The notes: generated from the sequence alone by a model not told the origin. DNA of 64,000 bases from an uncultured Actinomycetes bacterium (GCA_963787645.1 CAWBDS010000005.1:56749-120748), one strand, 5' to 3'; shown: positions 23,864 to 44,697, counted from the first letter of the stretch. Made by a program: numbers and translations.

Positions 23864-24706
23864 CTAGAGCCGCAGGATGCGCGCGGCGTTGTCGTACAGC
23901 ACCGCGCGCGCCACCTCGGCGGGCACGTCCAGCTCGTCGAACTCGGTCAGGCCGCGTTCCGGGGTGAGCAGCGGATAGTCGCTGCCCCACAGGAACTGCC
24001 CGCTCAGCCGGCCGCGCAGCTCGCGGATCACCTCGGGCGGGATGCGCCGCGGCGACCAGCCCGAGATGTCGATGTACACGTTGGTCTTGTGCAGCGCGAC
24101 CGCGATCAGGTCCATGTGCCAGGGCCAGCCGAAGTGCGCCGCCACCACGGTCAGGTCCGGGAACGCCGCGGCCACCGGGTCGAGCTTGAGCGGGTGGGCC
24201 AGGTCGATCCGGATGCCCTGGCCGCCGGGCTGGCGCGCGCCGATGCCGCTGGTGCCGGTGTGGAACAGGGCCAGCAGGCCGTGCTCCTGGCAGGCCGCGA
24301 AGATGGGCCAGTACGCCGGGTCATCGGGCGCGAAGGCCTGCAGCGACGGGTGGAACTTGACCCCGCGCAGCCCCAGCGCGGCGATCGACGCCACCTCGGC
24401 GACCGCCGAGCTCTTGTGCGGGTCGACCGAGCCCAGCCCGGTGAACACGTCCGGGTAGTCCCGGCACGCGGCGGCCACGGTCTCGTTCGGCACCCGGGGC
24501 CGCCCGGTGGCCGTCTCGGCGTCCCAGGCCAGCAGGACCGCCTTCAGCCCCAGCCCGCGGTACCGGGCGGCGAGCTCGTCCAGCGACTGCCGCTGGACCG
24601 GCGAGCGGAAGTACGCCTCGGCCGCCTCGACGTAGCCCGCCATGCTGCCGTCCAGCCAGTCCGGGGTGGGCAGGTGCACATGGAAGTCGATCGCGCGCAA
24701 CGGCAC
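23864..24706 (-). CDS. Amidohydrolase-2 (ACMSD-like, PF04909-type) metal-dependent hydrolase; last gene of the minus-strand biosynthetic operon
   Basis: IDFHVHLP, GVKFHP, LFHTG, AHFGWPW, GSDYP motifs. GTG 24706 lies 19 nt after the MFS stop. Confidence 0.8.
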   Translation of the reverse strand: MPLRAIDFHVHLPTPDWLDGSMAGYVEAAEAYFRSPVQRQSLDELAARYRGLGLKAVLLAWDAETATGRPRVPNETVAAACRDYPDVFTGLGSVDPHKSSAVAEVASIAALGLRGVKFHPSLQAFAPDDPAYWPIFAACQEHGLLALFHTGTSGIGARQPGGQGIRIDLAHPLKLDPVAAAFPDLTVVAAHFGWPWHMDLIAVALHKTNVYIDISGWSPRRIPPEVIRELRGRLSGQFLWGSDYPLLTPERGLTEFDELDVPAEVARAVLYDNAARILRL

Positions 24707-24725
24707 TGCCCCATGGTAGCGGGCC

Positions 24726-25973
24726 TCAGGTCTGCGCTCCCGCGGTGGCCAGCTCGGCGTTTTGCTCCCGCGCGGCCGGGCGCATGCCGTACCACGCGAG
24801 CGCCAGGCCGATGAACGACGCACCGGCGCACAGCCACCACACCTTGCTGCCGATCAGGTTCCAGCCCAGCACTCCCAAGGCCGGGCCGATGGCGAAGCCC
24901 AGCGTGAAGACCGCCTGCGAGGTGCCCACATACTGGCTCTTCAGCCGCGACGGGCCCGCGTTCGCCGGATACGCCAACATCACCGGGCCGGCCGTGATCT
25001 CGGCCAGCGTCCAGATCAGCGTGCCCCCGATGAAGATGACCAGCCCGGCTGGAACCGAGTACAGGGCCTGGCCGAAGCCGAGAAGGGCAAACCCGATCAA
25101 GGCCACCACCCGGGCCGGCCAGCGCTGGGTCAGCTTGGTCATCAGCAGCTCGCACGTGATCACGATCGCGGCGTTCATGGCGACCACGAAGGCGTACCAG
25201 GCGACGGCCAGATGGTCTGCGCGCATGGCCAGCGGCAGCACGCTGACGTACTGGATGTAGACCGTGGCGTTGATCAGCAGGGCGGACAGGAACAGCGCGT
25301 ATCGCCGGTCGGCGAAGACGGCGGCCAGCGCCCAACGTCTGGCCACCGAGACCGGGCCGGTTTCTTCTGCGTGCCGGACGGTCCGGGGCGGCAGCAGGAC
25401 GAGCGCGATCACCGCGTAGCCCATCGACGTCACCGCCTCGCCCCAGAACAGCAGGTTATAGGAGACCAGGATCAGCGTGGCGCCGAGCAGCGGCGCGGCC
25501 GTGGAGCCGATGTTCAGCGCAAGACGGTACAGCGCGAAGACCATGACCTGCCGGTTCTTTGGCGTGAGCTCGGACAGCAGGGCCGCCGAGGCCGGCCGGT
25601 ACACCAGCCCGATCATGCCGACGAGCGCCGCGAGGACCACCAGGGCGGGGTAGTTGCGGACGTACAGGATGCCGAGGATCAGCACCGACCGTCCGGCCAT
25701 GCTGAGCACGGTCCCCCAACGAGCGCCGAGCCAGTCGGCGAGCGCGGTGCCCACGACGACGCCGGCCGCCCCCCCGGCGCCGTAGGCGCTGAGCGCCGTG
25801 CCTGCCTGCACCGCGGTGAAACCGCGGTGCGTCATGAACAGCACCAGGAAGATGTTCAGGAACGTTCCGACCTGGTTCACCAGCACCCCGCCGAGCACCG
25901 CCTTGATCGCGGTCGGCGACTCGCGGAAGGTGACCAGGATGCGTGCGTCCTGTGCGGCTGGCCCGGCGGTCAT
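24726..25973 (-). CDS. MFS transporter (12-TMS), paralog of 31776..33167
   Basis: Hydrophobic 12-TMS pattern. The N-terminus FRESPTAIKAVLGGVLVNQVGTFLNIFLVLFMTHRGFTAVQAG parallels the second MFS. ATGA overlap with the upstream FAD oxidase stop. Confidence 0.85.
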   Translation of the reverse strand: MTAGPAAQDARILVTFRESPTAIKAVLGGVLVNQVGTFLNIFLVLFMTHRGFTAVQAGTALSAYGAGGAAGVVVGTALADWLGARWGTVLSMAGRSVLILGILYVRNYPALVVLAALVGMIGLVYRPASAALLSELTPKNRQVMVFALYRLALNIGSTAAPLLGATLILVSYNLLFWGEAVTSMGYAVIALVLLPPRTVRHAEETGPVSVARRWALAAVFADRRYALFLSALLINATVYIQYVSVLPLAMRADHLAVAWYAFVVAMNAAIVITCELLMTKLTQRWPARVVALIGFALLGFGQALYSVPAGLVIFIGGTLIWTLAEITAGPVMLAYPANAGPSRLKSQYVGTSQAVFTLGFAIGPALGVLGWNLIGSKVWWLCAGASFIGLALAWYGMRPAAREQNAELATAGAQT

Positions 25974-26974
25974 GTCAGTTCGGCCGCAGCACACTCGCTG
26001 GCGGCGAGCGCGGACTTGGCGCCACCGCCGGACCCGCCGGTGAAGGTGAACATGCCGGGTGCCACCTCGCGCAGGGCCAGCACCGGCGGCTCGCAGTAGC
26101 AGTCGGCCGCGCTGACCCGCTGCCGGGCGTGGCCGAGCTTCAGCAACGGGAAGCAGCCGACCGCCAGCTGCAGCGCCCGGTCATGCCAGGACCCGGTGAC
26201 CGGCGTGGCGCCCGGCGGCACGTCCCACTCGGTCGTCGGCACGCCGAGCAGCAGCCCCCCGTCCGCGGTGGGTCGGCCGTACAGGCCGGTCTGCTCGTCG
26301 GCGAACCCGGGCGGTCGCCAGGATCCCGCGTCGTAGACCGCGTACTGGATGGACCTGGTCCGGTACGCTCCGGTCGGCATCTCGAGGGCGCGTAGCAGCC
26401 GCGTGGTCCACGCCCCTGCGGCCAGCACCACCGCGTCATAGCCGCTCGCGGTCCGGGCGCTGTCCAGGGCTGCCTGGCGGACCCGGGCGCCCGGCCGCCC
26501 GGCGAGATCGGCGATCACGGCTTTACGCAGCGCGGCCGGGGAAATGTAGCCCGCCCGCCGTTCACGCACGACCACGCCCGGCCGCTCGCCGGTCCAGCCA
26601 GGGCGGCCGTCCTCGGTGGGGAACACCTCGGCCGGCGTGGTCAGCTCGGCGGATCCGGGCAGCTCCCGTTCGATCTCGGCAATCTCGCCGGCCAGGTCGG
26701 CACCCGCGCCGCGCAGGTAGGCGAACCCGGTCTCGCGATAGTCAGCCCACTGTCGCAGCAGCCGGCTCGCTAGCAGCTCGGCCAGGCTGGCGATAGCCAG
26801 TTCCCGCTGCCGGGGCAGGGGATCATAGGCGCGGACCGCGCCGCCGGACGCCGCGGTCGCGTCCGTCACCCCACCAGGTCCGGTCAGCAGGTCGACCTCG
26901 ATCCCGGGCCGCTGCGCGAGCCGCCAGGCCAGCAGCGAGCCGGCCAGCCCACACCCTGCCACACACACCCGCAC
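25970..26974 (-). CDS. FAD-dependent oxidoreductase, D-amino-acid/glycine-oxidase (DAO) type
   Basis: N-terminal dinucleotide fold VCVAGCGLAGSLLAWRLA, then DAVVLAAGAW; about 330 aa. Confidence 0.8.
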   Translation of the reverse strand: MRVCVAGCGLAGSLLAWRLAQRPGIEVDLLTGPGGVTDATAASGGAVRAYDPLPRQRELAIASLAELLASRLLRQWADYRETGFAYLRGAGADLAGEIAEIERELPGSAELTTPAEVFPTEDGRPGWTGERPGVVVRERRAGYISPAALRKAVIADLAGRPGARVRQAALDSARTASGYDAVVLAAGAWTTRLLRALEMPTGAYRTRSIQYAVYDAGSWRPPGFADEQTGLYGRPTADGGLLLGVPTTEWDVPPGATPVTGSWHDRALQLAVGCFPLLKLGHARQRVSAADCYCEPPVLALREVAPGMFTFTGGSGGGAKSALAASECAAAELT

Positions 26975-26983
26975 GGCCGCCGC

Positions 26984-27187
26984 CTAGCCGTCGCCGGCTA
27001 TTGGGGAGCCGTCGCCGACCGTCGGGAACCGGACGCCTGCTCGTGGAATCAGCAGGTGGCCCAGGCACCGCCGGTGCCGGGGCGGGGGGTCGATCTCCCG
27101 GCTGGCGACCTCGAACAGGTCGCCGGGTGCCGTCCCGGGCCCGGCCGCTTCCTTCAGGTACAGCCCGCTGCGCTCATTGTGCGGCAT
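26984..27187 (-). CDS. Hypothetical small protein (67 aa) filling the gap between ATP-grasp 1 and the FAD oxidase
   Basis: ATG 27187 overlaps the ATP-grasp stop by 14 nt and the ORF ends 10 nt before the oxidase start. About 85% of third codon positions are G/C by hand count. No family recognised. Confidence 0.4.
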   Translation of the reverse strand: MPHNERSGLYLKEAAGPGTAPGDLFEVASREIDPPPRHRRCLGHLLIPRAGVRFPTVGDGSPIAGDG

Positions 27188-28477
27188 GGGCGGGCCTCAG
27201 CCGCTCCCATGGGGTCTTGGTCGTCGTCGGCGCCTGGCCAGCCAGCTTGACCTCGATCATATCCGCGAAGTCCTCCAGCCTGCGCTGGGCGTCCTCGGCG
27301 GAGGTGCCGGTCACGATCAGGAATCCGAGCACGTTGTTCCCGTTCGGCGGCCGGCGGATGATGTCGCCCGGCCGCGCGGTGGCCGCGGCCATCAGGGTCT
27401 GCTCGGCGCCGGCGACCTCAGCGGGTATCCGGACGTATTCCAGCTGGCCTTCGTCGCCGATCAGGCACGTGCCCATCATGTGCACCCCGGTCGGCGCGTA
27501 GTGGTGCACCCGGGGCTGGACGCCGCGGGCCACGTCCATCACCGCCTCGATCGGGCTGTAGTCGGCGGTCACCCGCGCCACCAGGTCCAGGCCGCCGCCG
27601 CCCGGGCGGATGGCGATCTCGACGATGTACGGGTCGCCGCGGTGGTAGCGCACCTCGGCGTGCATCACGCTGCGCCGCAGTCCCTGGGCGTGCGCCGCGG
27701 CGGCGATGACCTGGTGTACCCGGGCCAGTTCCGCGTCGCTCAGCGCGGTCGGCGCCCGGTGCACGTCGTCCTCGAACGTGTCGCCCTCGGCCGTGACCCG
27801 GTCCACGATGGACCCGAGGTAGACCTCGTCGTCCCAGGCCAGTGCCTCGAACAGGTGCTCGTGGCCGTCGAGGAACGATTCCACCAGGACACGGTGCGGG
27901 CCGAGGTCGATGCCTTCGGCTTCGCGCAGATACGGGGGCATGTGCCGCATGCCCTCAGCCGTGATCCGGAAGCGCTGCTCCATCTCGGCGGGGTTATCGA
28001 CCCGGAACACGAAGTCGCTCGCGGCGCCCAGCGTCGGCTTGAGCACGACCGGGTACCCGAATTCCGCGGCGGCGGCCACCGCCTCGGCCGGGCTGCCCAC
28101 CCACCGGTACCGCGGATGCGGCACGCCGGCCCGCTCGTGCGCCTGGCGCATCAGCAGCTTGTTCCGGCTCTTGCGGGCCGCGTCCACACCGACGCCGGGC
28201 AGGCCGAGCGCCTCGGCGACCGCTGCGACCGCGATGACCGCGGACTCGGAGAACGTGAACACGCCGTCGAACGACTCGGCCTGGTGCCATTCCCTGGCCG
28301 CGGCGATGATCTCGCCGATCTGCTGTAGCCGGCGATCCGGTACCGGCCGTCGGCCCAGTAGCCTTCCTCACCGATGCCGTTGAGCACGAACAGGTCCGCG
28401 CCGAAGTCCCTGACCTGACGGTAGCGGCCGAGATGGTAGCTGGCGTGCTGGCGGGCCTCGATGGCGAGCAGCTTCAT
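27174..28477 (-). pseudogene. ATP-grasp ligase 1, one frame break as assembled
   Basis: MKLLAIEARQH...GRYRIAG (ATG 28477, ATGA overlap with the cupin stop) continues in another frame as LQQIGEIIAAAREWH...GYPVVLKP...EIAIRPGGGG. The break is near 28322-28340 and is repaired by adding 1 nt. Confidence 0.8.
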
Positions 28478-28863
28478 GGTGTCGGCGGGCCGTCGTGTCC
28501 GGCGGCGACGTGGCGGGCGGTGAACTTCTCCGACATCTCTGGGTCCCAAAACACGCTGTAGAACTGGAAGTCGGTGGTCCCGGCGTTAATGAGCTGATGG
28601 TTCGTGCCGGGCGGGAAGTGGACGATGTCGCCGGGCAGGAACGGGCTGCGCTCGCCCTCGGCCTCGAGCGCCCCTTCGCCGGAGATCGCGATGAAGATCT
28701 CGTACTCCTGGTGCGCGTGCGGGTCGGTGGCGCCGCCGGGCTCGATGACGCACCACGCGCCCTCGAACGGCGCGTTGAGGGCCGCCCACGGCACCAGGCG
28801 CTGGACGCGGACCCCGTATTCCTCCGGCATGCCGTCGCGGTCAAGCTTGCGGATCTCCATCAC
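28474..28863 (-). CDS. Stand-alone cupin (bicupin motifs 1 and 2 intact)
   Basis: GGATDPHAHQEYEIFIAISG fits G-x5-HxH-x3-E-x6-G and GDIVHFPPGTNHQLIN fits G-x5-PxG-x2-H-x3-N. GTGA/ATG overlap with the N-hydroxylase stop. Confidence 0.9.
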   Translation of the reverse strand: MMEIRKLDRDGMPEEYGVRVQRLVPWAALNAPFEGAWCVIEPGGATDPHAHQEYEIFIAISGEGALEAEGERSPFLPGDIVHFPPGTNHQLINAGTTDFQFYSVFWDPEMSEKFTARHVAAGHDGPPTP

Positions 28864-30191
28864 ACACTCCCGTGGTCAGGCCGCGCTGACGCCGGGTCGT
28901 CGGCGTCTGGTGAACCCCGGCCGGTCTGCTCGCGGTGCGCCAGCAGATCGGCGACGATCTCGCCGGCCCGCACGGCCAGCACACTGATCAGCGAGTCCGC
29001 TATGCCGTGCGTAGCCTCGTTGTTTCCCTGCAGATAACATCCCGCCGTGATGTCCGGCGGGGTGATCATCCGGTAGTGGCGGCTCACCCGGACGTCTCCG
29101 ATACCGCACGCGTCGGCCAGGTCACGGACCAGGCTGGGCGCTCTGGACTCGAAGCCGGTGCCGAGCAGCACCAGGTCGCAGCGCAGTTCGTCCCGGCAGG
29201 CCCGCATCCGGTCGTTGAGCGTGAGCACGATCTCCTCGCCCGCCATCTCGGCCGACTCGATGTCGACCATGGTGACCATGGACAGCCTCTGCTCGCCGGT
29301 CAGCCGCTCCAGGTAGATCTGCCGGAACAGGGTGTTGAGCATATCCGGCGTCACGCCCCCGTAGTTCGTCAGCCGTATGCCCGCCAGCACCTGCTCCCTG
29401 GTCTGCTCGGGGGCGGCGAAGAACTTGTCGGTATAGGAGGGGAAGTACAGCTCGTTGGTGAACTTGCTCGTCTGGTAGTAGTCGAGTCCGGCCGATCTCA
29501 TGATCATCGTGCACCGCGCGCCGGGCAAGCGCTGGTAGATGTCCCACAGCATCTCGGCCGCGCTCTCCGCGGCTCCCACCACCACCACACGGTCGAGTCG
29601 CTGCGGGTCGATCTCGCCGATCTGGCGCAGGTACTCGGTGCTGTGCAGGACGCGCTCCCTGGGCAGCCCGGCGAACGCCGCGGGCACATGCGCGTCGCGG
29701 CCGGCGCCGATCACCAGATTGCGCGCCGCGATCGTCGAGCCGTCCGCCATCCGGGCCAGCCAGCCGTCGGCCACGCCGTCAGCCTGGACGGGCTCGATGC
29801 TCGTGCAGTCCCTGCCGTACTCGACCCGGACCAGCTCCAGCGACTTGGCCGCCCACTGCAGGTAGTCGGAGATCTCCAGCCGGAACGGCAGGAAGCTGGC
29901 CATGTTGATGAAATCGTCCAGCCGGCCGCTGGAGTGCAGATAATTGACAAACGAAAACCGGCTGAGCGGATTGCGCAAGGTGACCAGGTTTTTAAGGAAG
30001 GAGACCTGGCTCTGTGTCCACGGCAGCATCATGCCGCGCTGCCAAACGATGCTCTCGTGCCGCTCGATAACGAGCGTGCTGGACGCTATTTCCGGCGGCG
30101 CCAGTTCCTCGACGGCAACCGCGAAAGCCAGGTTCGAAGGCCCGGCTCCAATGGCGAGAATCTCGACCTCTTGATGAGCCGTCGCCCTCAC
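28860..30191 (-). CDS. Lysine/ornithine N-hydroxylating flavin monooxygenase (SidA/IucD/PvdA family)
   Basis: ILAIGAGPSNLA (FAD site), VVVVGAAESAAE (NADPH site), TGF, and about 440 aa length typical of the family. Confidence 0.9.
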   Translation of the reverse strand: MRATAHQEVEILAIGAGPSNLAFAVAVEELAPPEIASSTLVIERHESIVWQRGMMLPWTQSQVSFLKNLVTLRNPLSRFSFVNYLHSSGRLDDFINMASFLPFRLEISDYLQWAAKSLELVRVEYGRDCTSIEPVQADGVADGWLARMADGSTIAARNLVIGAGRDAHVPAAFAGLPRERVLHSTEYLRQIGEIDPQRLDRVVVVGAAESAAEMLWDIYQRLPGARCTMIMRSAGLDYYQTSKFTNELYFPSYTDKFFAAPEQTREQVLAGIRLTNYGGVTPDMLNTLFRQIYLERLTGEQRLSMVTMVDIESAEMAGEEIVLTLNDRMRACRDELRCDLVLLGTGFESRAPSLVRDLADACGIGDVRVSRHYRMITPPDITAGCYLQGNNEATHGIADSLISVLAVRAGEIVADLLAHREQTGRGSPDADDPASARPDHGSV

Positions 30192-30356
30192 TGCCTTCCC
30201 GCCATAAAGCCGAGCGGGAAGCGCGCGGACGGCACAGAGCCGCCTTTGGCCCCGCTCGCACTAGATGAGAATCGCTCTTGATCGCCAACGACAATGCTCA
30301 CATAGGGGGTGATCCACGTCAAGGGTCCATCGTAACTCAAACACCTCCAAAAGGGA

Positions 30357-30377: not shown

Positions 30378-30473
30378 CGATGCCCTGGCGGCGGGTAAGG
30401 AGCGCGCCGTGAACTGGGGACGCGGTGGAATATCGCCAGAATAAGGGCAGGAATTTGCACAGGTCAGTTCGGC

Positions 30474-31753
30474 CTAGCCGAACGAAGGCCTGACCTTGAC
30501 GGAGATGAGATCCATCGCCGCCTGGGCGACGGCCAGCGCCTGGTCGGCGGTGGACCCCTCGGCCTCTACCGTTATAACGCGGTCGTGCGAGCTGCGCAGC
30601 GGCGGGGCCCGCTCGCCCACCTTGACCTGGATCGAGCAGCCGTGCACGCCGGGCAGGGCCAGCGCCTCCTCGCGGCCGTCGATGCTCGTCACCTCGCCTG
30701 GCGGCACGGCGCCCATCCATACCGCCGCGTAGCGGTCCGTGACCGGCGGCGCGGTCAGATCCCGGTCCAGCATCATGTCGAGGAAGGCGCCGTTGGCGTC
30801 GTAGCCCGAGGCGATGGAGATGAGCTCGATGATTCCGCCGCCCGCCATCCGGCCCGCGCACTCCATCAGGTAGGGCACGCCATCCTCGACCCGCCACTCG
30901 CAGTGCGTCCACCCGCTGTCCAGGCCCACGGCGTCGAGCACACGCACGGTGCCGGTCAGCAGCCGCTCGGTCAGGTCCGCGCTGATGTCGGCCGGATACA
31001 GGTGACCTTGCTCGACCGGACGCGGGCCGTCGAACAGCAGCGTCCTGGTCACGCCGCCGAACGCCATGTGGCCGGAGCGGAACATCATCTCCACGCTGAA
31101 CTCCTCGCCGCGGACGTACCGCTCGGCGAGCATCCGCAGCGGCAGCGGCCGGTCCGGCAGGAAGACGCCCTCTTCCTGGTGGGTGCACTCCAGCCAGGTC
31201 GCGTCGACCTCACCGGGCTCGGAGACGATCTTGGTCCCGATCGCCGCCTGCCGGTTGGCCGGCTTGAGCACGATCGGGCCGCCGATCTCGGCCATGAACG
31301 CCCTGACCTCGGCCGGCCCCTCACCGGTACCGACTCGGGGTTGGCGATGCCCGCGGACCGGGTTATCTGGCGCAGCAGGTGCTTGTCCCGCAGCGCGCGG
31401 GCGGCTCCGTACCCGGCGCCGCGCACGCCGTACCGTTCCGCCAGCCGCGCCGTGAACGGCACGCCGTAGTCGGATACCGGGAGGATGCCGGCCGGCAGGC
31501 GCTGCCGGTTGGCGTTGTAGAAGCGGTCGGCGGCGCCTTCGAGCTCGTACAGCTCCCACCCGATCAACTCCCGCAGCGTCGGGACGTCGGCGGATTCGGC
31601 CACCGCGTCCCGCTTGCGCAGCACGTCCGGTTCGTCGATGAAGACCGCGGAGCCGTCGGGCAGGTACTGGCCCAGGCCCCGCAGCCCGGCGAGCGTCAAG
31701 CCGATGAAGATGACCGACCCGTCGCTGTTCTCCGCAACGCCTACGTTGCCCAT
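30474..31753 (-). pseudogene. ATP-grasp ligase 2, one frame break as assembled
   Basis: MGNVGVAENSDGSVIFIG...RDKHLLRQITRSAGIANPESVPV continues in another frame as (T)GEGPAEVRAFMAEIGGPIVLKP...ECAGRMAGGG. The break is near 31318-31335 and is repaired by adding 1 nt. Confidence 0.8.
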
Positions 31754-33167: not shown

Positions 33168-33302
33168 CCGCCTGTAGAGCCCCTTCCGTGGTGAGCGAAA
33201 CGGGACACATGGCGCGCCTCGAGGATGCTTAGGCTGCCTGCAGCGCGTTGCCGTCACGGTACCAAAACGCACTTAACGCGACAATGTCGCGAGGCCGCCG
33301 CG

Positions 33303-37034: not shown

Positions 37035-37431
37035 TGCATTCCCGCTCCTACTCCTTTCCCGTTGACCCAGGCAGAACGCCACGAAGGGCTCGGCGAACCG
37101 CTGGCCAATGGCAGGCTCCGACGGTGGTGAGGTGGGCGGCGCGAGGCGAGTATACGGCTGCCTACCCGAGCGGGCTAGACCCCCGCGGTTCGTTCAAGTC
37201 CGAGGAGTACCCGAGTAGATGTCACCTATCAGTCACTGACAGTAGTGAAAGTCGCCGGAGCAGCGGGAAATGGGTGGCGGCCGATCCACGCAACGGTCAC
37301 GGAGCCCGCGGTGCGCCTGCCGGGTGAGGAAATCGGGCATTGCGGCGCTGCCGGACGGAATATAGCCTTGGGCTCGTGGCCCGTCGCCGTATGCGGCGCC
37401 AGCCGACAGCGGGCGACGGCCGGAGGTCCCG
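37035..37431. promoter_or_regulatory. Divergent control region of the two biosynthetic operons
   Basis: About 400-bp lower-G+C non-coding gap between the minus-strand MetRS-paralog gene and the plus-strand methyltransferase gene. Contains the short palindrome CAGTCACTG. No promoter hexamers could be assigned confidently. Confidence 0.4.
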
Positions 37432-38163
37432 TTGAGCGAGGGTCATTCTTCCCGCGATGCCGCGGCCGTCTCGATGTGGGATGAGGCTTATGGCCCGGCG
37501 CACCTGAAAGACCAGCAGAACCTGTGGGGCGATCCGCCCGTGCCTTACGCCGCGCGGGCTGCTGCTGCCTTCGCGGCCAATTCTTCCCGGCTGGTAATTG
37601 ACCTGCCGTGCGGTGACGGGCGCAATCTCGCCCCCCTGACGGAGGGCACGTCCATCCTGCTCGGCGCCGATACCTCGGTGCAGGCGATGACGATCGCGGA
37701 AAGGGTGGCGGCCCGTGCGGGAATTGCCGCCATGACCGTCTTCCTGCGCATGGACGTCTTCGATACGGGCCTGCTCGACAACTCTGTCGACGGCATTTTC
37801 TGCTGGGATCTGCTCGGGCACCTGAGAAATGTCTCGGACGCGCTGCGGGAACTTTACCGGGTGATCAGGCCGGGTGGCATCATCGTCGCCAACATGTGGA
37901 CGATGAATGACTGCCAGACATCTGATCCGGACATCAGGCAGATCGGCCCGAAAGAATACATCGACCATTTCGATTTTTACTGCAGATTCTACGATCAGGA
38001 TGACCTCGGCACGCTGCTGAATGCTACCGGGATAAGCGCGGAATCGGTTGAGGTCAGTGCCTGGACCGAGCCCGCGCACGCCGACTACCGGACCTATGAG
38101 CATGACCATGAGAGCCTGGCCTTCACGATCAGGAAGGGCGTGGATGAGCACCAGGCTCGGTGA
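37432..38163 (+). CDS. Class I SAM-dependent methyltransferase
   Basis: VIDLPCGDGRN (motif I), DGIFCWDLLGH, LRPGG. TTG 37432 is preceded by GGAGG at 5 nt; the alternative start is ATG 37474. Confidence 0.8.
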   Translation: MSEGHSSRDAAAVSMWDEAYGPAHLKDQQNLWGDPPVPYAARAAAAFAANSSRLVIDLPCGDGRNLAPLTEGTSILLGADTSVQAMTIAERVAARAGIAAMTVFLRMDVFDTGLLDNSVDGIFCWDLLGHLRNVSDALRELYRVIRPGGIIVANMWTMNDCQTSDPDIRQIGPKEYIDHFDFYCRFYDQDDLGTLLNATGISAESVEVSAWTEPAHADYRTYEHDHESLAFTIRKGVDEHQAR

Positions 38164-39124
38164 GCCCAGGTCGGCCGAAGCCGAGTTGGCGGCGCCCGGA
38201 TTCAGCGCGGGCGTCGGCTCGGCGATCGCCCATCACGGCGAGTTGCTCCAGGGTGTGTTCGATGACGGCGCGGGTCGGCTGCGCCGCGCGCTGGTGACGA
38301 TGCCGCTGCCCGGCCGGGGCAGCCGGGCGGTGTTCTACCCGAGCCAGAGCCACTGGGGCGTGGTGGGGCCGGCCGGGCTGACCAAGGCCAGGCGCGCGGC
38401 CATCTACGCGCTGCGTGAGTTCTCCGGGCACCCGTCGCCGGCCAAGGGCGGCCGGGTGGAGATCACCAGCAGCGTCCCGCACGGTATCGGCATGGGCTCC
38501 TCGACCAGCGACGTCGCCGCGGTCATCCGGGCGGTGGCCGACTATCACGGCGTGACCCTGTCCCGGGAGGAGGTCGGCCGGCTCGCGGTGCTGGCCGAGG
38601 TAGCCGCGGACTCAGTGATGATCGACGACCGCGTGGTCCTGTTCGCCCACCGGGACGGGCTGGTGCTCGAGACGTTCGGGCACCAGCTGCCACCCATGGT
38701 CGTGGTCGGCTGTGACACGGCGCCCGGCCAGGTCGTCGAGACGCTGGGCCTGCCGCCCGCCGACTACAGCGACAAGGAGGCCGGGGAGTTCCAGGTGCTG
38801 CGCGGAGCGCTGCGCCGGGCCATCGCCACGGAGGACGTCGCCCTGCTCGGCAAGGTCGCGACGGCCAGCGCGCGGATCAACCAGCGCTACCTGCCCAAGC
38901 CGGGCCTGGAGGCGCTGATCGAGCTGTGCGTGCGGCATGGCGGCGCCGGCCTGCAGATCGCCCACAGCGGCACCGTGGCCGGGCTGATCTTCGACGCCCG
39001 GCACCCGCGCATGGGCATCGAGGGCTGCGTGCTGCGGATCAAGGAGCTCGGGTTCGAGGTGACCGATGTCATCGAGCCCGCGCACGCCCCGGCGCTGCGC
39101 GCGGCGCACCGCACGGCCTCATGA
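38144..39124 (+). CDS. GHMP-family kinase, PduX (L-threonine kinase)-like
   Basis: HHGELLQG, SSVPHGIGMGSSTSDVAA (GHMP motif II), LPKPGLEALIEL......GLQIAHSGTVAGLIFD; colinear with Salmonella PduX as I recall it. Confidence 0.8.
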   Translation: MSTRLGEPRSAEAELAAPGFSAGVGSAIAHHGELLQGVFDDGAGRLRRALVTMPLPGRGSRAVFYPSQSHWGVVGPAGLTKARRAAIYALREFSGHPSPAKGGRVEITSSVPHGIGMGSSTSDVAAVIRAVADYHGVTLSREEVGRLAVLAEVAADSVMIDDRVVLFAHRDGLVLETFGHQLPPMVVVGCDTAPGQVVETLGLPPADYSDKEAGEFQVLRGALRRAIATEDVALLGKVATASARINQRYLPKPGLEALIELCVRHGGAGLQIAHSGTVAGLIFDARHPRMGIEGCVLRIKELGFEVTDVIEPAHAPALRAAHRTAS

Positions 39125-40191
39125 GCGTCCGCGGCAGCTTTGCCGAGGCGACCGACGCCTATCAGCTGCCCAGGCTTATCCGGCTCGGCCCGAATCTGTA
39201 CGCGGCCTGCTTCACGCTGATGAAGATGGTTCCCGCCCGGTTCATCCTGCGCCGGGCCGCGGAGCGGGGAATGCTGGAGCCCGGGACCGTCATCGTCGAG
39301 ACGACCTCGGGCACCTTTGGCCTGGCGCTGGCCATGCAGGCCGTGCACATGGACCGCCAGCTGATCCTGGTCGGCGATCCCGTCATCGACGAGCGCCTGT
39401 ACCGCAGGCTGACCGACCTCGGCACCGTCGTCGAACGGGTCAGCGCGGAGGCGGGCCGGATACCCGGCGGGTACCAGGCCGCCCGGCTGCAGCGGCTCGA
39501 GGCCATCATGGCCGATCTCGACGCCGCCTTCTGCCCCTGGCAGTACTCGAACCCGGATAACCCGCGCGCCTATGCCACGGTGGCCGAATACTTCCTGGAG
39601 TGCCTCGGCCAGGTCGACTGCATCGTCGGGCCGGTGGGGTCGGGCGGCTCGATGTGCGGGACTGTCACCCACGTCCGGGCGCTGCTGCCCGAATGCCGCG
39701 CCGTCGGCGTCGACAGCCATTCCAGCGTGCTGTTCGGCCATCCCGATGGTCCCCGCGAGCTGCGCGGCATGGGCATGAGCCTGATGCCGGACAACCTGGA
39801 TCACCGGGTCTTCGACCAGGTGCACTGGACCGCTCCCGCGCCTGCCTACCAGGCGACCCGCCAGCTGCACCAGCGGCACGCCCTGTTCATGGGGCCGTCG
39901 AGCGGCGCGGCCTACCTGGCCGCGCGCTGGTGGGCCGGCGCGAATCCGGACGCCCTGACCGTCGTGATGATGCCGGACGAGGGATACCGCTACCAGGACA
40001 CCGTTTACGACGACGCCTGGCTGGCCGGCCGCGGCCACCTGGATGAGCCGCTGCCCGCCGAGCCCGTCATGGTCTCAGATCCGGCCCGGCCGGCCGGCTC
40101 CTGGATGGCGTTCGACTGGGCCAGGCGCTCTTACGCCGACGCCATGTCGCGGCCGCTATCGTCGGCGGCCGCCGACGGTGAGCCGTCGTGA
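39121..40191 (+). CDS. Fold-type II PLP-dependent enzyme (cysteine synthase/CBS/SbnA-like family)
   Basis: ETTSGTFGLALA, GPVGSGGSMCG (phosphate-binding loop), GPSSGAAY. ATGA overlap with the kinase stop. Confidence 0.8.
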   Translation: MSVRGSFAEATDAYQLPRLIRLGPNLYAACFTLMKMVPARFILRRAAERGMLEPGTVIVETTSGTFGLALAMQAVHMDRQLILVGDPVIDERLYRRLTDLGTVVERVSAEAGRIPGGYQAARLQRLEAIMADLDAAFCPWQYSNPDNPRAYATVAEYFLECLGQVDCIVGPVGSGGSMCGTVTHVRALLPECRAVGVDSHSSVLFGHPDGPRELRGMGMSLMPDNLDHRVFDQVHWTAPAPAYQATRQLHQRHALFMGPSSGAAYLAARWWAGANPDALTVVMMPDEGYRYQDTVYDDAWLAGRGHLDEPLPAEPVMVSDPARPAGSWMAFDWARRSYADAMSRPLSSAAADGEPS

Positions 40192-41639
40192 CCGGGACCG
40201 GCCGCCTGACCGGTGAACTCGGCCTGCGTACCCGCCGGGTGGTGTACGGCGAGCCGACCCAGGCCGAGCTGGCGGCCGAGCTCGCGCTGATGATCCGCGT
40301 CGACCAGGCCCACCTGGTCATGCTGGCCGAGCAGCAGCTGATCCAGCCAGCGTCCGCGGCCTGCCTGCTAGCCTGCATGGACGAGCTGGCCGCCGGGCAG
40401 TTCAGCGCGCTGCGATCACGGCCCGCGCCGCGCGGGCTCTACCTGTGCTACGAGGGCTACCTGATCGAGCGGCTGGGCCCGGACATCGGCGGGGTGCTGC
40501 ATTCCGGCCGGTCCCGCAACGACCTGAAGGCCACCATCACGGCGCTGCGGCTGCGCGACTGGCTGCTGGAATTCGCCGGTCAGGCGGTCCGGCTCGAGGC
40601 CATCTTGCTGTCCCGCGCGCGGGCCCACGCGGGCGTGGTCATGCCCGCCTACACCCACTTCCAGGCCGCGATGCCGATCAGCTACGGCTACTACCTGCTC
40701 GGCGTGGCCACCGCGGTGGGCCGCGAGATCGACGCGCTCGCCTCGGCCAGTTCCGGGCTGGCGCGGTGTCCGCTCGGCGCGGGCGCGGTGGCCGGCACCG
40801 ATCTGCCCATCAACCCGGAGCGAACCGCGCGGCTGCTCGGCTTCACCGCCGCTACCCGGCACGCGCTTGATGCCGTGGCCAGCCGGGACGTGCCGCTGCG
40901 GCTGCTGGCCTGCGCCGCCAGCCTGGCTGTCGTGCTGAGCAGGTTCGGCACCGACCTGCAGCTGTGGAGCACCGCCGAGTTCGGCTTCATCGACTTTCCC
41001 GACCGCCTGGTGGGCGGCAGCTCGGCCATGCCGCAGAAGCGCAACGCCTTCCTGCTCGAGCACGTCAAGGCGAAGGCAGGCCACGTCACCGGTGCCTGGG
41101 CGGCCGCGGCCGGCATGATGACGGCGGCGCCGTTCACCAACTCGATCGAGGTGGGCACCGAGGCCATGGCCGCCGTCTGGCCCGGGCTGGGCGCCGCCAT
41201 GGACTCCGTCCTGCTCACCCAGGTGCTGGTCAGCGGGGCGAGGCCGGTGCCCGACCGGATGCGGCAGCGGGCAGCCGAGGCGTTCACCGCAGCCACCTGG
41301 CTGGCCAACCGCCTGGTGCGGCAGGGTGTCCCGTTCCGCACCGCCCACCACATGGTGGGCGACGCGGTCCGCCAGGCGGTGGCGGCAGGCTCGACCCAGC
41401 TGGCCGACTTCGGCCCGCCGGGCTGGCTGGACGGGATCGACGAGGCGCGCCTCGACCTCGCGGACTTGGTGCGCGTGCACTCGGCCGGCGGCGGCCCCGG
41501 CGCGTTCACCGGGGCGTTCGCCGATAGCCAGTGCCGGTGGACGGCGCACCGGGACTGGGTCTCCGGCCAGCAGCAGGCCACGCGCGAAGCCGGCGCCGCG
41601 CTCGCCGCGGCGGCCGGACGGCTGAAGGACCGCGGATGA
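40188..41639 (+). CDS. Argininosuccinate-lyase-like enzyme (fumarase/aspartase superfamily)
   Basis: SGRSRNDL, THFQAAMP and the signature GSSAMPQKRN. GTGA overlap with the upstream stop. Confidence 0.85.
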   Translation: MTGTGRLTGELGLRTRRVVYGEPTQAELAAELALMIRVDQAHLVMLAEQQLIQPASAACLLACMDELAAGQFSALRSRPAPRGLYLCYEGYLIERLGPDIGGVLHSGRSRNDLKATITALRLRDWLLEFAGQAVRLEAILLSRARAHAGVVMPAYTHFQAAMPISYGYYLLGVATAVGREIDALASASSGLARCPLGAGAVAGTDLPINPERTARLLGFTAATRHALDAVASRDVPLRLLACAASLAVVLSRFGTDLQLWSTAEFGFIDFPDRLVGGSSAMPQKRNAFLLEHVKAKAGHVTGAWAAAAGMMTAAPFTNSIEVGTEAMAAVWPGLGAAMDSVLLTQVLVSGARPVPDRMRQRAAEAFTAATWLANRLVRQGVPFRTAHHMVGDAVRQAVAAGSTQLADFGPPGWLDGIDEARLDLADLVRVHSAGGGPGAFTGAFADSQCRWTAHRDWVSGQQQATREAGAALAAAAGRLKDRG

Positions 41640-42868
41640 GCGGTGCGTGGCTGGTGCTCGTGGAAAGCAACACCACCGGGTCCGGACGGCTGTTCTGCGA
41701 CTGCGCCCGGCGCCTCGGCCTGCGGCCGGTGCTGATCGCCCGTGACCCGGCGCGCTACCCCTACGTGGCGGCTGACCAGGTGGAGCACCGGGTAGCCGAC
41801 ACCGCCTCCGCGGCGGCCGTGCTGGCCGCCTGCCGCGGCCTGGGCGGCGTGGTCGCCGGTGTCACCAGCAGCTCGGAGTACTTCATCGCCACCGCCGCCG
41901 AAGTGGCCCGCTCCCTCGGACTGCCTCACCCGGCGCCGGATGCGGTCCGGGCCTGCCGCGACAAGCACGCCCAGCGCATCACCTTGAGCGCCGCGGGCGT
42001 ACCCTGCCCGCCGTTCGCGGCCGCCCGCTCACCGGAGGAGGCCGCGGCGGCGGCCGCGCGGGTCGGATACCCGGTCGTGGTCAAGCCGGCCTCCGGCACC
42101 GGGTCGATCGCGGTGCGCCTGTGCCACGACAGCGCCCAGGTCCGGGCCGCGGCCGCCCATGCCTTCGCGGCGCCGGATCCCGCGCTCCCGCGGCAGGAGA
42201 CCGTCTTGGTCGAGGGTTACCTGACCGGCACCGAGTACTCGACCGAGCTGATCGACGACCAGGTGGTCGGGGTCACCAGGAAGCTGCTCGGCCGCGAGCC
42301 GTACTTCGTCGAGACCGGCCACGACTTCCCCGCTCCGCTGCCCGGAGCCACGCGCGCGGCCCTGAGCCGGTTGGCGGTGGCCGCGGTACGCGCCCTCGGC
42401 CTGGGCTGGGGCGGCGCCCATGTCGAGCTCCGCTACTCCGCCGCCGGGGTCCCGTGCGTGGTCGAGGTCAACCCCAGGCTGGCCGGTGGCATGATCCCGC
42501 GCGCGGTCCAGGAGGCGACCGGCGTCGACATGATCTTCCACGTGGTGGCGGCCGCGGCGGCCCGGCCGGAACCGCTGCGGCCCCGGCCGGGCCGGGCCGC
42601 GTCGATCCGCTTCCTGGTGGCCGGCCAGGAGGGCACGCTGACCGGGATCCGCGGCACGGCCGAGGCCCGGCGGGTGCCGGGTGTCGTCGAGGTGGGCATC
42701 ACCGCCCAGGTCGGCCAGCACGTGGTGCCGCGCCACTCGTTCCGGGACAGGCTCGGTTACGTGATCGCGGCCACGGACGACGGCGAGCAGGCCGCGCGGT
42801 CGGCCGAGGCGGCCCTGGCCCTGCTGGCTGCCCAGATCACCCCGGTCACGGCGGGAATGCCGTCATGA
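41636..42868 (+). CDS. ATP-grasp ligase 4
   Basis: RDKHAQR, GYPVVVKP, EGYL.G.EYS.E, EVNPRLAGG. ATGA overlap with the lyase stop. Confidence 0.85.
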   Translation: MSGAWLVLVESNTTGSGRLFCDCARRLGLRPVLIARDPARYPYVAADQVEHRVADTASAAAVLAACRGLGGVVAGVTSSSEYFIATAAEVARSLGLPHPAPDAVRACRDKHAQRITLSAAGVPCPPFAAARSPEEAAAAAARVGYPVVVKPASGTGSIAVRLCHDSAQVRAAAAHAFAAPDPALPRQETVLVEGYLTGTEYSTELIDDQVVGVTRKLLGREPYFVETGHDFPAPLPGATRAALSRLAVAAVRALGLGWGGAHVELRYSAAGVPCVVEVNPRLAGGMIPRAVQEATGVDMIFHVVAAAAARPEPLRPRPGRAASIRFLVAGQEGTLTGIRGTAEARRVPGVVEVGITAQVGQHVVPRHSFRDRLGYVIAATDDGEQAARSAEAALALLAAQITPVTAGMPS

Positions 42869-44697
42869 CCAGATCGGTGGCGATCATCGGACTCGGCTCG
42901 CGCGGGCTCGGCGTGCTGGAGCGGATCGCAGCGCTGGCCGGCCCCGGCGAGGTCACGGTCAAGGTCATCGACCCGGCCTGCACGGGCGCGGGCGTGCACG
43001 ACACCGCCCAGCCCGACTATCTGTTGCTCAACACCACCTGCAGTCAGGTTTCGATGTTCCCCGACCGGCTCAGCGTGGGCTCGGGCCCCGCGGCCCGCGG
43101 CCCGAGCCTGCACGAGTGGGCGGCCTCCCGCGGCCTGCGCCTGGCGCCCGACGGATTCACCGTCGGCACGGAAGGCCGGGACCTGCGGCCCACCGACTTC
43201 CTGCCCCGGCGGCTGCTCGGCGAGTACCTGTCCTGGTGCTTCGGGCAGCTCCGCGGCACGCTGCCTGGCCGGCTGGTCACGCACCGGGCCGAGGCGGTCG
43301 ATATCTCCTCCGCTGACGGCGGCGGGCTGCGCATCGCTCTGGCCGACGGCACCAGCGTGGCCGCCGACTTCGCGTTCCTGACCACGGGCTACACCGGCAA
43401 CGCGAACCCGCAGGCCGACGGCCTCATCGGCGGGCCCTACCCGCTGCCGGGGCGGCTCGCGGCGATCGGGCCCGGGCAAACGGCGGCCATCGGCGGCTTT
43501 GGGCTGTCAGCGATGGACATCATCTCCTGTCTGACCGTGGGCCGTGGCGGCAGGTTCCGCCGGGACCAGGGCGACGTCGAGTACCTCCCGGGCGGCGGCG
43601 AGCCGACGGTCCTGCTGTACTCGAGGTCGGGTATCCCGTGCCGCGCCCGCCCGCTGGTCACCCGGCTCGAGATCAGCTATGACGCCCTGGTGTTCACCCC
43701 GGCCGCGGTCGACGAGCTGCGGGAGCAGCGTGGCGGCCCGCACTGCCCGCTCGACTTCGAGGCCGACGTCATGCCGCTGATCCTGATCGAGATGCGGATC
43801 GCCTACCGCCGCTGCCAGGCCCGGTGCACCGGCCCCGAGGCCGAGCAGGCCTTGGTAGCCGAGCTGCGGGGTGCGCCCGCGGCGGCCGTGGCCGCCCGGC
43901 TCGACGAGCTCGACGCGCGGGCTGGCCGGTTCGACGCTGCCGCGGCCTTCGCCGGCGCCGCCGGCCTCAGGCTGGACGACGGTGCTGCCTACCAGCGCTG
44001 GTTCGCCGATACGCTGCGCCGCGACCTCGGCGAGGGCGTGGTCGGTCTGGCCTGGAGCCCGGTCAAGGCCGCGCTGGACATCCTGCGGGAGGCGCGCGAC
44101 ACGGTCCGGTACGTCGCCGACTTCGGCGGGCTGACCGAATCCTCCGCGCACGACTTTTACCGGCGCATCGTGCCGCTGATGAACCGCGCCGTGGTGGGGC
44201 CGCAGTACGAGAGGCACGCCGAGTTGCTCGCGCTGATGGCTGCCGGGCTGGTCCAGGTCCCGTTCGGCCCCGCGCCCGCCATCGGCTGGAACGGCCGGTG
44301 CTGGACGCTCCGGTCCACCAGGCTCGGCCGACCCGAGCGACGCGAGGCCGACTGGCTGGTACCGGCGCAGGTCCCGCTGCCCGGCGTGGACTGCTCGGCC
44401 AGCCCGCTGCTGGCCACGCTGGCCCGCAAGGGATGGATCAGGCCGTCCCGGCCCGGCAGCCGCCTGGTCCCCGGCATCGACGTGGACCGCGACCAGCATC
44501 CGCTGGACGCGGCCGGCCGGCCGAATCGGCGGATCTGGGTCCTCGGCCCGCTGTGCGAGGGCGCGACGTTCTACAACAACCTGGTCCCCTCGCCCGGCGT
44601 GTACTCGCGCCCGGTCGCCGACGCGCACCGGTGCGCCGCCGCAATGCTCGCGGCCCACGTGCCCGCCGACAGCATCCCGGCCGGCTCTCAGGGCTGA
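42865..44697 (+). CDS. FAD/NAD(P)-binding protein (YdhS-like, PF13454-type oxidoreductase)
   Basis: N-terminal VAIIGLGSRGLGVLERI dinucleotide fold and a second GFGLSAMD site; about 610 aa. ATGA overlap with the ATP-grasp 4 stop. Confidence 0.75.
   Translation: MTRSVAIIGLGSRGLGVLERIAALAGPGEVTVKVIDPACTGAGVHDTAQPDYLLLNTTCSQVSMFPDRLSVGSGPAARGPSLHEWAASRGLRLAPDGFTVGTEGRDLRPTDFLPRRLLGEYLSWCFGQLRGTLPGRLVTHRAEAVDISSADGGGLRIALADGTSVAADFAFLTTGYTGNANPQADGLIGGPYPLPGRLAAIGPGQTAAIGGFGLSAMDIISCLTVGRGGRFRRDQGDVEYLPGGGEPTVLLYSRSGIPCRARPLVTRLEISYDALVFTPAAVDELREQRGGPHCPLDFEADVMPLILIEMRIAYRRCQARCTGPEAEQALVAELRGAPAAAVAARLDELDARAGRFDAAAAFAGAAGLRLDDGAAYQRWFADTLRRDLGEGVVGLAWSPVKAALDILREARDTVRYVADFGGLTESSAHDFYRRIVPLMNRAVVGPQYERHAELLALMAAGLVQVPFGPAPAIGWNGRCWTLRSTRLGRPERREADWLVPAQVPLPGVDCSASPLLATLARKGWIRPSRPGSRLVPGIDVDRDQHPLDAAGRPNRRIWVLGPLCEGATFYNNLVPSPGVYSRPVADAHRCAAAMLAAHVPADSIPAGSQG

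Follow-up and report, generated by a model that had tools for sequence, protein, structure and literature searches.

Few natural products contain a nitrogen-nitrogen (N-N) bond, those that do are often bioactive, and there is demand for hydrazine synthetases as biocatalysts. The locus described here occupies positions 23864-44697 of a 64,000-nucleotide stretch of DNA from an uncultured Actinomycetes bacterium (GCA_963787645.1, CAWBDS010000005.1:56749-120748); the whole stretch is called the window, and positions are counted from its first letter. Judged by its gene content, this cluster of about 21 kb probably makes a small peptide with an N-N bond from three known modules, independently of nonribosomal peptide synthetases (NRPS) and polyketide synthases (PKS).

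The fuscazine (fuz) cluster of Microbispora fusca carries a split four-gene hydrazine cassette with two ATP-grasp ligases and yields a hydrazide-linked tripeptide (PMC13149037, Nat Chem 2026). Its flavin N-monooxygenase (FuzD), stand-alone cupin (FuzE), flavin oxidoreductase (FuzF) and FuzG, a protein similar to methionyl-tRNA synthetase (MetRS), all have counterparts in the present locus. The fuz ligases, FuzC and FuzH, build the peptide without NRPS, hydrazide bond included, as is predicted for the ATP-grasp ligases here. Both clusters are of actinomycete origin, and some relatives of the present one carry a tRNA deacylase, the marker by which fuz was found. An Fe/alpha-ketoglutarate-dependent arginine hydroxylase and the use of arginine or hydroxyarginine, alanine and pipecolate are peculiar to fuz, whereas a diaminobutyrate (Dab) cassette, a methyltransferase, an FzmM-like N-oxygenase, a secreted beta-solenoid protein and an amidohydrolase are found only here. 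The cassette is contiguous in fuz but interleaved with ligases in the present locus, a comparison made from the published description of the Fuz proteins.

In the didomain synthetases PyrN and ForJ (pyrazomycin and formycin), Spb40 (s56-p1), Tri28 (triacsin) and AzsN and ThzN (azaserine and thrazarine) the same two catalytic units, a cupin and a MetRS-like enzyme, are fused and have an N-hydroxylase and a cleaving oxidase as partners. In the present locus, as in RHS1, Fuz and AsnHS, the two are separate proteins. The contacts to ATP and hydroxylysine, the zinc knuckle and the zinc ligands of the cupin are nevertheless shared, and the MetRS-like protein is 35% identical in a residue-level alignment to PyrN-C, the half of the pyrazomycin enzyme that acts as an O-aminoacyl-hydroxylamine synthetase. 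The arginines with which PyrN binds glutamate are absent here, and the pocket code agrees with none of the published ones compared. Downstream, the didomain systems employ NRPS, PKS or nucleoside chemistry (PMC11705231), in contrast to the ATP-grasp ligases of this locus.

The DabABC enzymes of Burkholderia thailandensis, which have homologues in the friulimicin, pacidamycin and napsamycin pathways, produce (2S,3R)-2,3-diaminobutyrate. DabA is an L-threonine kinase of the GHMP family, DabB an SbnA-like pyridoxal phosphate (PLP) enzyme that adds L-aspartate, and DabC an ATP-grasp/ArgH-like protein; the three also give L-2,3-diaminopropionate (L-Dap) from phosphoserine, and the DabC halves are found as separate proteins too (PMC10906522). 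The same kinase, PLP enzyme, ArgH-like lyase and ATP-grasp protein share one operon here. Their product feeds NRPS lines in the described systems, whereas this locus has no NRPS; its Dab operon is tied to a methyltransferase and an FzmM-like flavoprotein, and some of its relatives lack the DabC halves. The FzmM/CreE family, to which that flavoprotein belongs and whose described members serve the aspartate-nitrosuccinate (nitrite) pathway, includes the L-aspartate N-hydroxylase from Streptomyces sp. V2 (structure 8cp2; PMC10404684).

The predicted hydrazine cassette

The window has a guanine-plus-cytosine (G+C) content of about 72%, at which plain lists of open reading frames (ORFs) are unreliable; genes were therefore chosen by third-position G+C framing, and the genes so chosen were scanned with Pfam and NCBIfam. 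The locus consists of two divergent, translationally coupled operons with 4-nt start/stop overlaps at most gene junctions. From 37034 down to 23864, the minus-strand operon encodes the MetRS-like protein, an ATP-grasp ligase, a protein of no known family, a major facilitator superfamily (MFS) exporter, an ATP-grasp ligase of the L-amino acid ligase (LAL) type, the N-monooxygenase, the cupin, a further LAL-type ATP-grasp, the DAO-family oxidase, another MFS exporter and an Amidohydro_2 protein. The plus-strand operon (37432-44697) encodes an S-adenosylmethionine (SAM) methyltransferase, a GHMP kinase, an SbnA-family PLP enzyme, an ArgH-like lyase, an ATP-grasp protein and a NAD_binding_9 flavoprotein.

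An earlier note on this DNA had proposed an NRPS- and PKS-free cluster built on the parts list of a hydrazine synthetase, with ATP-grasp ligases as assemblers. That core proposal is supported. Domain scans reveal no NRPS or PKS domains among the genes called in the window, all the genes that the note listed are recovered at the same coordinates, and the control region of about 400 bp and lower G+C that it placed between the operons is confirmed by measurement. The four core genes and the candidate peptide ligases are as follows.

35637-37034, minus strand: stand-alone MetRS-like protein, predicted O-aminoacyl-hydroxylamine synthetase and large half of a hydrazine synthetase (tRNA-synt_1g; PyrN-C match)
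28474-28863, minus strand: stand-alone zinc cupin, predicted to catalyse the N-N bond-forming rearrangement (Cupin_2, 9.3e-17)
28860-30191, minus strand: SidA/MbtG-type flavin N-monooxygenase, a lysine N6- or ornithine N5-hydroxylase (PF13434, 3.4e-84)
25970-26974, minus strand: DAO-family oxidase dependent on flavin adenine dinucleotide (FAD) (Pfam DAO, 1.6e-23)
34372-35712, likely start 35640, minus strand: ATP-grasp ligase coupled to the MetRS-like gene (ATP-grasp_4/_3)
27174-28477 (called at 27174-28262), minus strand: LAL-type ATP-grasp coupled to the cupin gene, interrupted (ATP-grasp_4 and LAL_C2)
30474-31753 (called at 30474-31559), minus strand: second LAL-type ATP-grasp, specific to a sub-variant of the cluster, interrupted (LAL_C2 and ATP-grasp_4)

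The MetRS-like protein provides the most specific link to hydrazine formation. Its start at 37034 is preceded by AGGAG and agrees with that of a 465-aa homologue (P0001). In a search of the PDB its closest solved relatives are 9vq4/9vqj/9vr2 and 9l8v (E 1.9e-58 and 4.4e-58), whereas the best true MetRS, 1rqg, follows at 3.4e-35; the specific similarity to a hydrazine synthetase domain on which the earlier proposal depended is thus present. The 9vq4 and 9l8v entries are PyrN-C (bioRxiv 10.1101/2025.08.22.671884). Alignment to PyrN-C shows that the protein retains HIGH and KFSTS, both already reported in the note, together with 8/8 cysteines of the zinc knuckle and the adenylate and N6-hydroxy-lysine contacts T141, N143, D420, N421, N449 and Y452. 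Pfam matches the tRNA-synt_1g catalytic core alone (residues 40-407) and no anticodon-binding domain at E<=0.01, and about 70 residues are left past the region aligned to PyrN-C. Lacking a domain for binding the tRNA anticodon, the protein is therefore no housekeeping synthetase.

Arg390 and Arg425, which hold the glutamate side chain in PyrN, are lost. The published pocket codes are TPDQWMNH for glycine, SADQWYGH for threonine and SFVQALNR for glutamate (PMC12376268). The alignable pocket residues here are Q at position 1, D/P at positions 3/4 and N/F at positions 7/8, and a substrate prediction attempted from them agrees with none of the three codes and rules out the glutamate-like one. As far as the pocket can tell, the amino acid activated is not glutamate.

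The cupin carries the motif HAHQEYE...NH, an HxHxxxE...H site that is conserved in five orthologues and equivalent to His50/His52/Glu56/His90 of PyrN. The metal ligands of the characterised enzymes, which include an essential glutamate, are H50/H52/E56/H90 in PyrN and D63/H65/E69/H103 in RHS1 (PMC8664883). The zinc site of His/His/Glu/His is retained in full, as the earlier note had it. The best PDB matches, 4rd7 (8.8e-42) and plu4264 (3e-29), are both uncharacterised stand-alone cupins, and the match to the proven N-N cupin RHS1 (5UQP, E 3.7e-8) is far weaker.

The N-hydroxylase and the FAD oxidase share one operon with the cupin and MetRS-like genes. The former matches the lysine hydroxylase MbtG (3.6e-78) and the ornithine hydroxylases KtzI (2e-73) and PvdA (1.7e-70) in the PDB, and lysine is its likely substrate. 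The PDB search returned no solved relative of the DAO oxidase by sequence. By analogy with Spb39 and FuzF, it is predicted to cleave the lysine-derived half off the hydrazine adduct.

The predicted diaminobutyrate operon and the candidate peptide ligases

The genes of the plus-strand operon are as follows.

37432-38163, plus strand: class I SAM methyltransferase, first gene of the Dab operon (Methyltransf_11/25)
~38144-39124, plus strand: GHMP kinase, DabA-like, predicted O-kinase of L-threonine or L-serine (GHMP_kinases_N/C; operon position)
39121-40191, plus strand: SbnA-family PLP beta-replacement enzyme, DabB-like (PALP; TIGR03945 at 5.2e-59, below the equivalog cutoff)
40188-41639, plus strand: argininosuccinate-lyase-like enzyme, homologue of the C-terminal half of DabC (Lyase_1 and ASL_C2)
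41636-42868, plus strand: ATP-grasp protein, homologue of the N-terminal half of DabC (N-terminal part of PRK02186)
42865-44697, plus strand: FzmM/CreE-family class B flavin N-oxygenase, last gene of the Dab operon (NAD_binding_9; 8cp2 match)

The second to fifth of these genes are, by family and order, a split DabABC cassette for 2,3-diaminobutyrate. Most telling is the NCBIfam model PRK02186, an 890-position model named 'argininosuccinate lyase' that in fact describes a fusion of ATP-grasp and lyase. Over positions 411-882 of the model the lyase scores 424 bits, against 287 bits for the argH model; the ATP-grasp protein encoded at 41636-42868 scores 346 bits over positions 5-396, where the other three ATP-grasps of the cluster reach 95-171 bits against the model. 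The genes for the two halves always adjoin, and the kinase and PLP enzyme genes meet in an ATGA start/stop overlap at 39121-39124. PDB matches of the lyase at <=1e-20 are ArgH and delta-crystallin only; the nitrosuccinate lyase CreD is absent from them.

The earlier note had listed a PduX-like kinase, a fold-type-II PLP enzyme and an ArgH-like lyase as accessory genes, in a set that it did not recognise from any characterised N-N cluster. The families are present, but they form one Dab unit instead of miscellaneous accessories, and with it the gene set becomes largely explicable. The note's four ATP-grasp ligases have to be reduced as well: four ATP-grasp genes exist, but one is a DabC half, and three therefore remain as candidate peptide ligases.

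Among these, the ligase at 34372-35640 is the most constant ligase partner of the MetRS-like gene, with 54-91% identity in both near and distant clades of relatives. The structures nearest to it are the L-amino acid ligases BL00235 and BacD. Its reading frame is intact; the two LAL-type genes are broken, so that two of the three candidates are frameshifted in this sequence.

The protein that the note called 'FAD/NAD(P)-binding' is indeed a flavoprotein and, more specifically, an N-oxygenase of the FzmM/CreE family, which aligns with 8cp2 over its full length (3e-57, 33% identity). It retains R13, N62 and the Arg266/409/412/416 cluster beside the flavin. Three of the five contacts that line the entry chamber for L-aspartate are lost (R276 falls in a gap, Asp replaces N413 and Ser replaces R577), R13 and R416 being retained, and R593 is replaced by Ala. 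The mutation N413E was designed to block aspartate binding (PMC10404684). A partner nitrosuccinate lyase of the CreD type was not found, the sole lyase of the cluster being ArgH/DabC-like by NCBIfam and by PDB matches at <=1e-20; here the oxygenase gene is linked to a diamino-acid operon instead. With an altered entry chamber and no CreD-type lyase a nitrite pathway is therefore unlikely, and the flavoprotein more probably oxygenates an amine of the pathway. A CreE/CreD nitrite pathway was also considered as the main account of the lyase and the flavoprotein and was discarded as such on the split match to PRK02186, the ArgH-only PDB list and the lost aspartate contacts.

Relatives and accessory genes

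Relatives of the MetRS-like protein at 70-94% identity number in the hundreds, nearly all of them from soil metagenomes. The named ones come from metagenome-assembled genomes (MAGs) of Streptosporangiaceae, Sporichthyaceae, Jatrophihabitantaceae, Micromonosporaceae and Pseudonocardiaceae, so that the cluster family is so far known from soil metagenomes and, where named, from actinomycete MAGs of several families. Four relatives (L001, L002, L006 and L007) were compared individually, and 80 further loci from a metagenome scan were compared by tblastn. The four show the same gene set as the window. Because this set recurs in many independent metagenomic contigs, it is beyond chance.

Co-conservation of the four core genes, which the earlier note had made a test of its proposal, is seen in dozens of metagenomic loci. 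The DAO, N-hydroxylase and cupin genes flank MetRS-like genes both in the clade of at least 64% identity and in a clade of 50-58% identity. The DAO and N-hydroxylase genes are each found in most related loci that reach far enough, in near and distant clades alike, and they adjoin the MetRS-like gene where the flank suffices.

For the Dab operon, 22 loci are informative, defined by a MetRS-like gene of at least 64% identity, the methyltransferase gene and at least 6.8 kb beyond it; they include a few near-duplicate contigs, e.g. L007/L008, L019/L020 and L033/L034. DabA, DabB and the FzmM-like gene occur in all 22, and both DabC halves in 19/22 (L003 and L045 lack both, L029 lacks the lyase). 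In related loci the methyltransferase gene always comes before the kinase gene. The distant clade (20 loci) has a compact layout of cupin, MetRS-like protein, DAO, a different N-hydroxylase, a small protein, the same ATP-grasp and MFS, without the methyltransferase, Dab or FzmM module. Because that clade lacks them, the hydrazine cassette with the MetRS-adjacent ligase is, on this comparison, the old core, and the operon of Dab, methyltransferase and oxygenase genes a clade-specific addition.

Four relatives carry in their Dab operons an AlaX-type tRNA deacylase gene (246 aa; tRNA_SAD 2.7e-10) that the window lacks. It lies between the gene for DabB or for the N-terminal half of DabC and the FzmM-like gene, at the following positions.

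L029:3926-4663: AlaX-type gene
L031:2218-2958: AlaX-type gene, in place of both DabC halves
L045:4195-4935: AlaX-type gene, in place of both DabC halves
L047:2307-3047: AlaX-type gene

According to published work, a tRNA deacylase marks clusters whose products are translatable non-canonical amino acids (PMC13149037).

The remaining features of the cluster are as follows.

23864-24823, minus strand: Amidohydrolase_2 family protein, sub-variant-specific accessory (PF04909, 3.5e-47)
24726-25994, likely start 25973, overlapping the DAO stop, minus strand: MFS exporter (MFS_1, 4.8e-36)
31776-33272, minus strand: second MFS exporter (MFS_1, 3.6e-35)
33303-34337, minus strand: secreted-looking beta-solenoid protein of 344 aa (AlphaFold2 model; no family)
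37035-37431, no strand: divergent intergenic region of 397 bp, 67% G+C against 72% for the window

Rfam gives no match in the divergent intergenic region, and neither a riboswitch nor any other RNA element was found in the cluster.

By gene content the window and L006 belong to one sub-variant, marked by the extra pair of LAL and MFS genes and by the amidohydrolase and lacking a protein of about 450 aa. The amidohydrolase also follows DAO in L006 and is missing from most other variants. The extra ligase travels with the second MFS exporter, a pairing also seen in L005, L006, L040, L073 and L082. Between the cupin-linked ligase and DAO, most variants encode a 450-462-aa protein without a Pfam domain (L001:17529-18917, L007:17047-18399, L002:1-1176), which has weak matches (E 0.005-0.02) to circularly permuted ATP-grasp type 2. 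The LAL and MFS pair that the window and L006 have in its place may be a non-orthologous ligase replacement.

Homologues of the first MFS exporter (46-72% identity) are found in most related loci. In L006, which is otherwise collinear and about 92% identical, the MFS gene at 24731-25963 is missing and L006 14889-14899 joins the flanks directly. Comparison of the two sequences indicates that the exporter gene between DAO and the amidohydrolase was gained or lost recently.

Two other variable genes lie near the MetRS-like gene. A conserved 78-aa protein is encoded between it and its ATP-grasp partner in many relatives (L001:11598-11834, and also L004, L005, L025, L029, L033, L040, L045 and L074-L089) and is absent from the window, where the two genes overlap; the precomputed Pfam assignment is Avidin_like, which our own scan did not confirm. 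Between the genes for the cupin-linked ligase and the MetRS-like protein, L002 (9102-9947) and L055 have a DDAH/amidinotransferase-like gene (281 aa; PF19420 3.5e-5), which suggests further tailoring diversity in the cluster family.

The 'secreted protein' of the earlier note (33303-34337) does have a signal-like N-terminus, together with GGN repeats, and can be described more closely. It has no Pfam or NCBIfam match. Its AlphaFold2 model is a confident all-beta solenoid (pLDDT 87.9), for which Foldseek returns insignificant beta-helix matches only and none that is significant in the PDB. Homologues occur in 16 of the 24 listed related loci (>=8 kb) that carry the methyltransferase/Dab module; none is seen in L008, L010, L026, L031, L033, L034, L045, L047, L049 and L057, and some of these loci end too early on that side to show it. 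Such a protein is unexpected in a small-molecule pathway.

The boundaries of the cluster hold at 23864 and 44697. Exodeoxyribonuclease III, USP, SDR, acyl-CoA ligase and PhaC genes flank it on the left, and DUF885 and YjbR genes on the right. The YjbR-family gene (46501-46860, minus strand) lies just outside the FzmM-like end, from which the DUF885 gene (44776-46446) separates it; in L002 and L007, too, a YjbR gene is called a few kb or less from the cluster.

Proposed pathway and competing explanations

The family assignments, motif conservation, operon structure and co-conservation set out above lead to a proposed pathway, whose substrates, order of steps and product are predicted. The SidA/MbtG-type flavoenzyme would N-hydroxylate the side-chain amine of L-lysine, or less likely of L-ornithine. 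The stand-alone MetRS-like enzyme would then adenylate an amino acid other than glutamate and esterify it onto the N-OH group, the zinc cupin would rearrange the ester to a hydrazine, and the DAO-family FAD oxidase would remove the lysine carbon chain to leave a free alpha-hydrazino acid. In the other operon, the GHMP kinase would phosphorylate L-threonine (or L-serine), the SbnA-family enzyme would swap the phosphate for the amine of L-aspartate, and the ArgH-like lyase with its ATP-grasp partner would eliminate fumarate to give 2,3-diaminobutyrate (or 2,3-diaminopropionate). Two or three LAL-type ligases could couple the hydrazino acid and the diamino acid, perhaps with a further amino acid, by amide or hydrazide bonds, in the manner of FuzC and FuzH. 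The SAM methyltransferase and the FzmM-family N-oxygenase would modify an amine, with the diamino acid or its aspartate adduct as its most plausible carrier, and the MFS pumps would export the product.

Several points weigh against this pathway. No member of the cluster family has a known enzyme activity or product, and the likeness to Spb40, Tri28, FuzG, FuzE and DabABC is taken from families and published descriptions. The amino acid that the MetRS-like enzyme activates cannot be read off its pocket residues, and the close PDB scores of the N-hydroxylase do not separate lysine from ornithine. L003, L045 and L029 lack the lyase, and free diaminobutyrate therefore could not arise there by the known route. 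Finally, because two of its ligase genes are frameshifted, this particular copy may not make the full product.

The frameshifts could mean that the cluster is decaying in this genome, which is possible but doubtful. If both deletions were real, two of the three peptide ligases would be inactive and the product truncated or missing. Each of the two LAL genes has exactly one frame-breaking deletion of 1 nt relative to L006: in the gene at 27174-28477 it lies near 28327 and leaves the N-terminal 50 aa in another frame, and in the gene at 30474-31753 it lies near 31321, with two frames that align to the L005 homologue. Orthologues are intact in L006 (437 and 426 aa respectively, at 92-93% nucleotide identity), L007, L001 and L002. 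Against decay, there are no other gaps relative to L006 except that one of the genes differs by 9 nt, in frame, at its 3' end, neither LAL gene has gained a premature stop outside the frameshift, and one of the two deletions sits at a G run. Because the source seems to be a metagenome-type assembly, and because two other ORFs of the window each merge two unrelated families, as scattered indel errors would, we lean towards assembly error. These two ORFs, read from stop to stop on the minus strand, combine a DeoC aldolase with an amino-acid permease (5469-8030) and an alpha/beta hydrolase with an acyl-CoA dehydrogenase (15058-17562); they are either natural fusions or the result of stop codons lost to indel errors. 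A look-up with the exact cupin sequence found no independent sequence over the frameshift sites. It is very improbable that the locus encodes an ordinary NRPS-independent hydroxamate metallophore whose MetRS-like protein and cupin have no connection to N-N bonds. SidA/MbtG hydroxylases are typical of siderophore pathways, and MFS exporters and two N-oxygenases are present, but neither in nor beside the cluster is there an IucA/IucC synthetase, an acyltransferase, a TonB or ATP-binding cassette (ABC) uptake gene or a siderophore-binding protein. The specific likeness of the MetRS-like protein to PyrN-C, the catalytic glutamate kept in the cupin and the joint travel of hydroxylase, cupin, MetRS-like and DAO genes across clades all argue for hydrazine formation.

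Two further explanations give the plus-strand operon a larger part in the N-N chemistry. The lyase and the flavoprotein might be a CreD/CreE pair that makes nitrite, which would place a second, nitrite-dependent N-N chemistry (a triacsin-like N-nitrosation to a triazene, diazo or N-nitroso group) beside the hydrazine. Triacsin reportedly unites a hydrazine synthetase with this nitrite pathway (Del Rio Flores et al. 2021; summarised in PMC11705231), and here a full-length homologue of a crystallised L-aspartate N-hydroxylase, with N62 and the arginine cluster kept next to the flavin, is encoded two genes downstream of a lyase of the aspartase/fumarase superfamily. Such a pair is nevertheless quite unlikely. 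The lyase passes the argH model and scores higher still against the C-terminal half of DabC; CreD is missing from its PDB matches although CreD structures (5XNY/5XNZ) exist; and the kinase-PLP-lyase-ATP-grasp unit already accounts for it. The three missing aspartate contacts, among them an acidic residue at N413 that recalls the blocking mutation, the absence of a CreM/Tri17-type ligase and the retention of the flavoprotein in relatives that have no lyase point the same way. Alternatively, the Dab module might feed the N-N chemistry directly, either through a hydroxylamine that the FzmM-like enzyme makes by N-oxygenating the DabB aspartate adduct or the beta-amine of Dab and that the MetRS-like protein and cupin couple, or through use of a hydrazine or hydroxylamine nucleophile by the DabB-like enzyme. 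In all 22 informative loci the Dab operon ends with the FzmM-like gene, which is also kept in L003, L031 and L045, loci that have neither DabC half; the carboxylate-binding arginines together with an acidic residue at N413 would suit an amine-bearing derivative of aspartate; and hydrazine synthetases do take other N-hydroxy-diamino acids, such as N4-hydroxy-2,4-diaminobutyrate in the case of Apy9 (PMC11705231). We consider direct feeding improbable, since a conventional SidA/MbtG hydroxylase and a DAO-type cleaving oxidase, the signature of a lysine carrier, are conserved, and the clade of 50-58% identity runs its hydrazine cassette without a Dab module. The favoured explanation remains a lysine-carried hydrazine synthesis and a separate Dab supply, joined by ATP-grasp ligases.

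A linkage of hydrazine synthetase to a Dab cassette or to an FzmM-like enzyme is not described in the open literature searched, a search that left subscription papers and MIBiG outside its scope; nor did synteny with a characterised cluster, the third ground on which the earlier note would have been refuted, come to light. The novelty that the earlier note claimed stands to the extent that this cluster is undescribed in that literature, and it is weakened by fuscazine (PMC13149037, 2026). With a split hydrazine cassette and ATP-grasp ligases published there, the locus is therefore an uncharacterised variant of known logic. The cluster family is real, uncharacterised and widespread; each of its modules is known, and it is not conceptually surprising.

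Being compact (about 21 kb) and free of megasynthases, the cluster is practical to synthesise and express, and it offers a lead for genome mining. It would deliver a new amino-acid specificity for a MetRS-like enzyme, ATP-grasp ligases acting on hydrazino and diamino acids, a way to test what an FzmM oxygenase does outside nitrite making, and a role for the hitherto unexplained ATP-grasp half of DabC. A bolder and rather unlikely proposal is that the FzmM-family enzyme N-oxygenates the diamino acid or its aspartate adduct instead of making nitrite, and that the ligases assemble two activated nitrogens, a hydrazine and a hydroxylamine or nitroso group. The resulting chemotype would carry several N-N or N-O functions; examples are an N-hydroxy-hydrazide, a peptide of azoxy or triazane-like type and an aza-heterocycle whose ring an ATP-grasp enzyme closes. 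If true, the FzmM family would gain both a new route and a new class of substrate, and the route would be widespread in uncultured soil actinomycetes.

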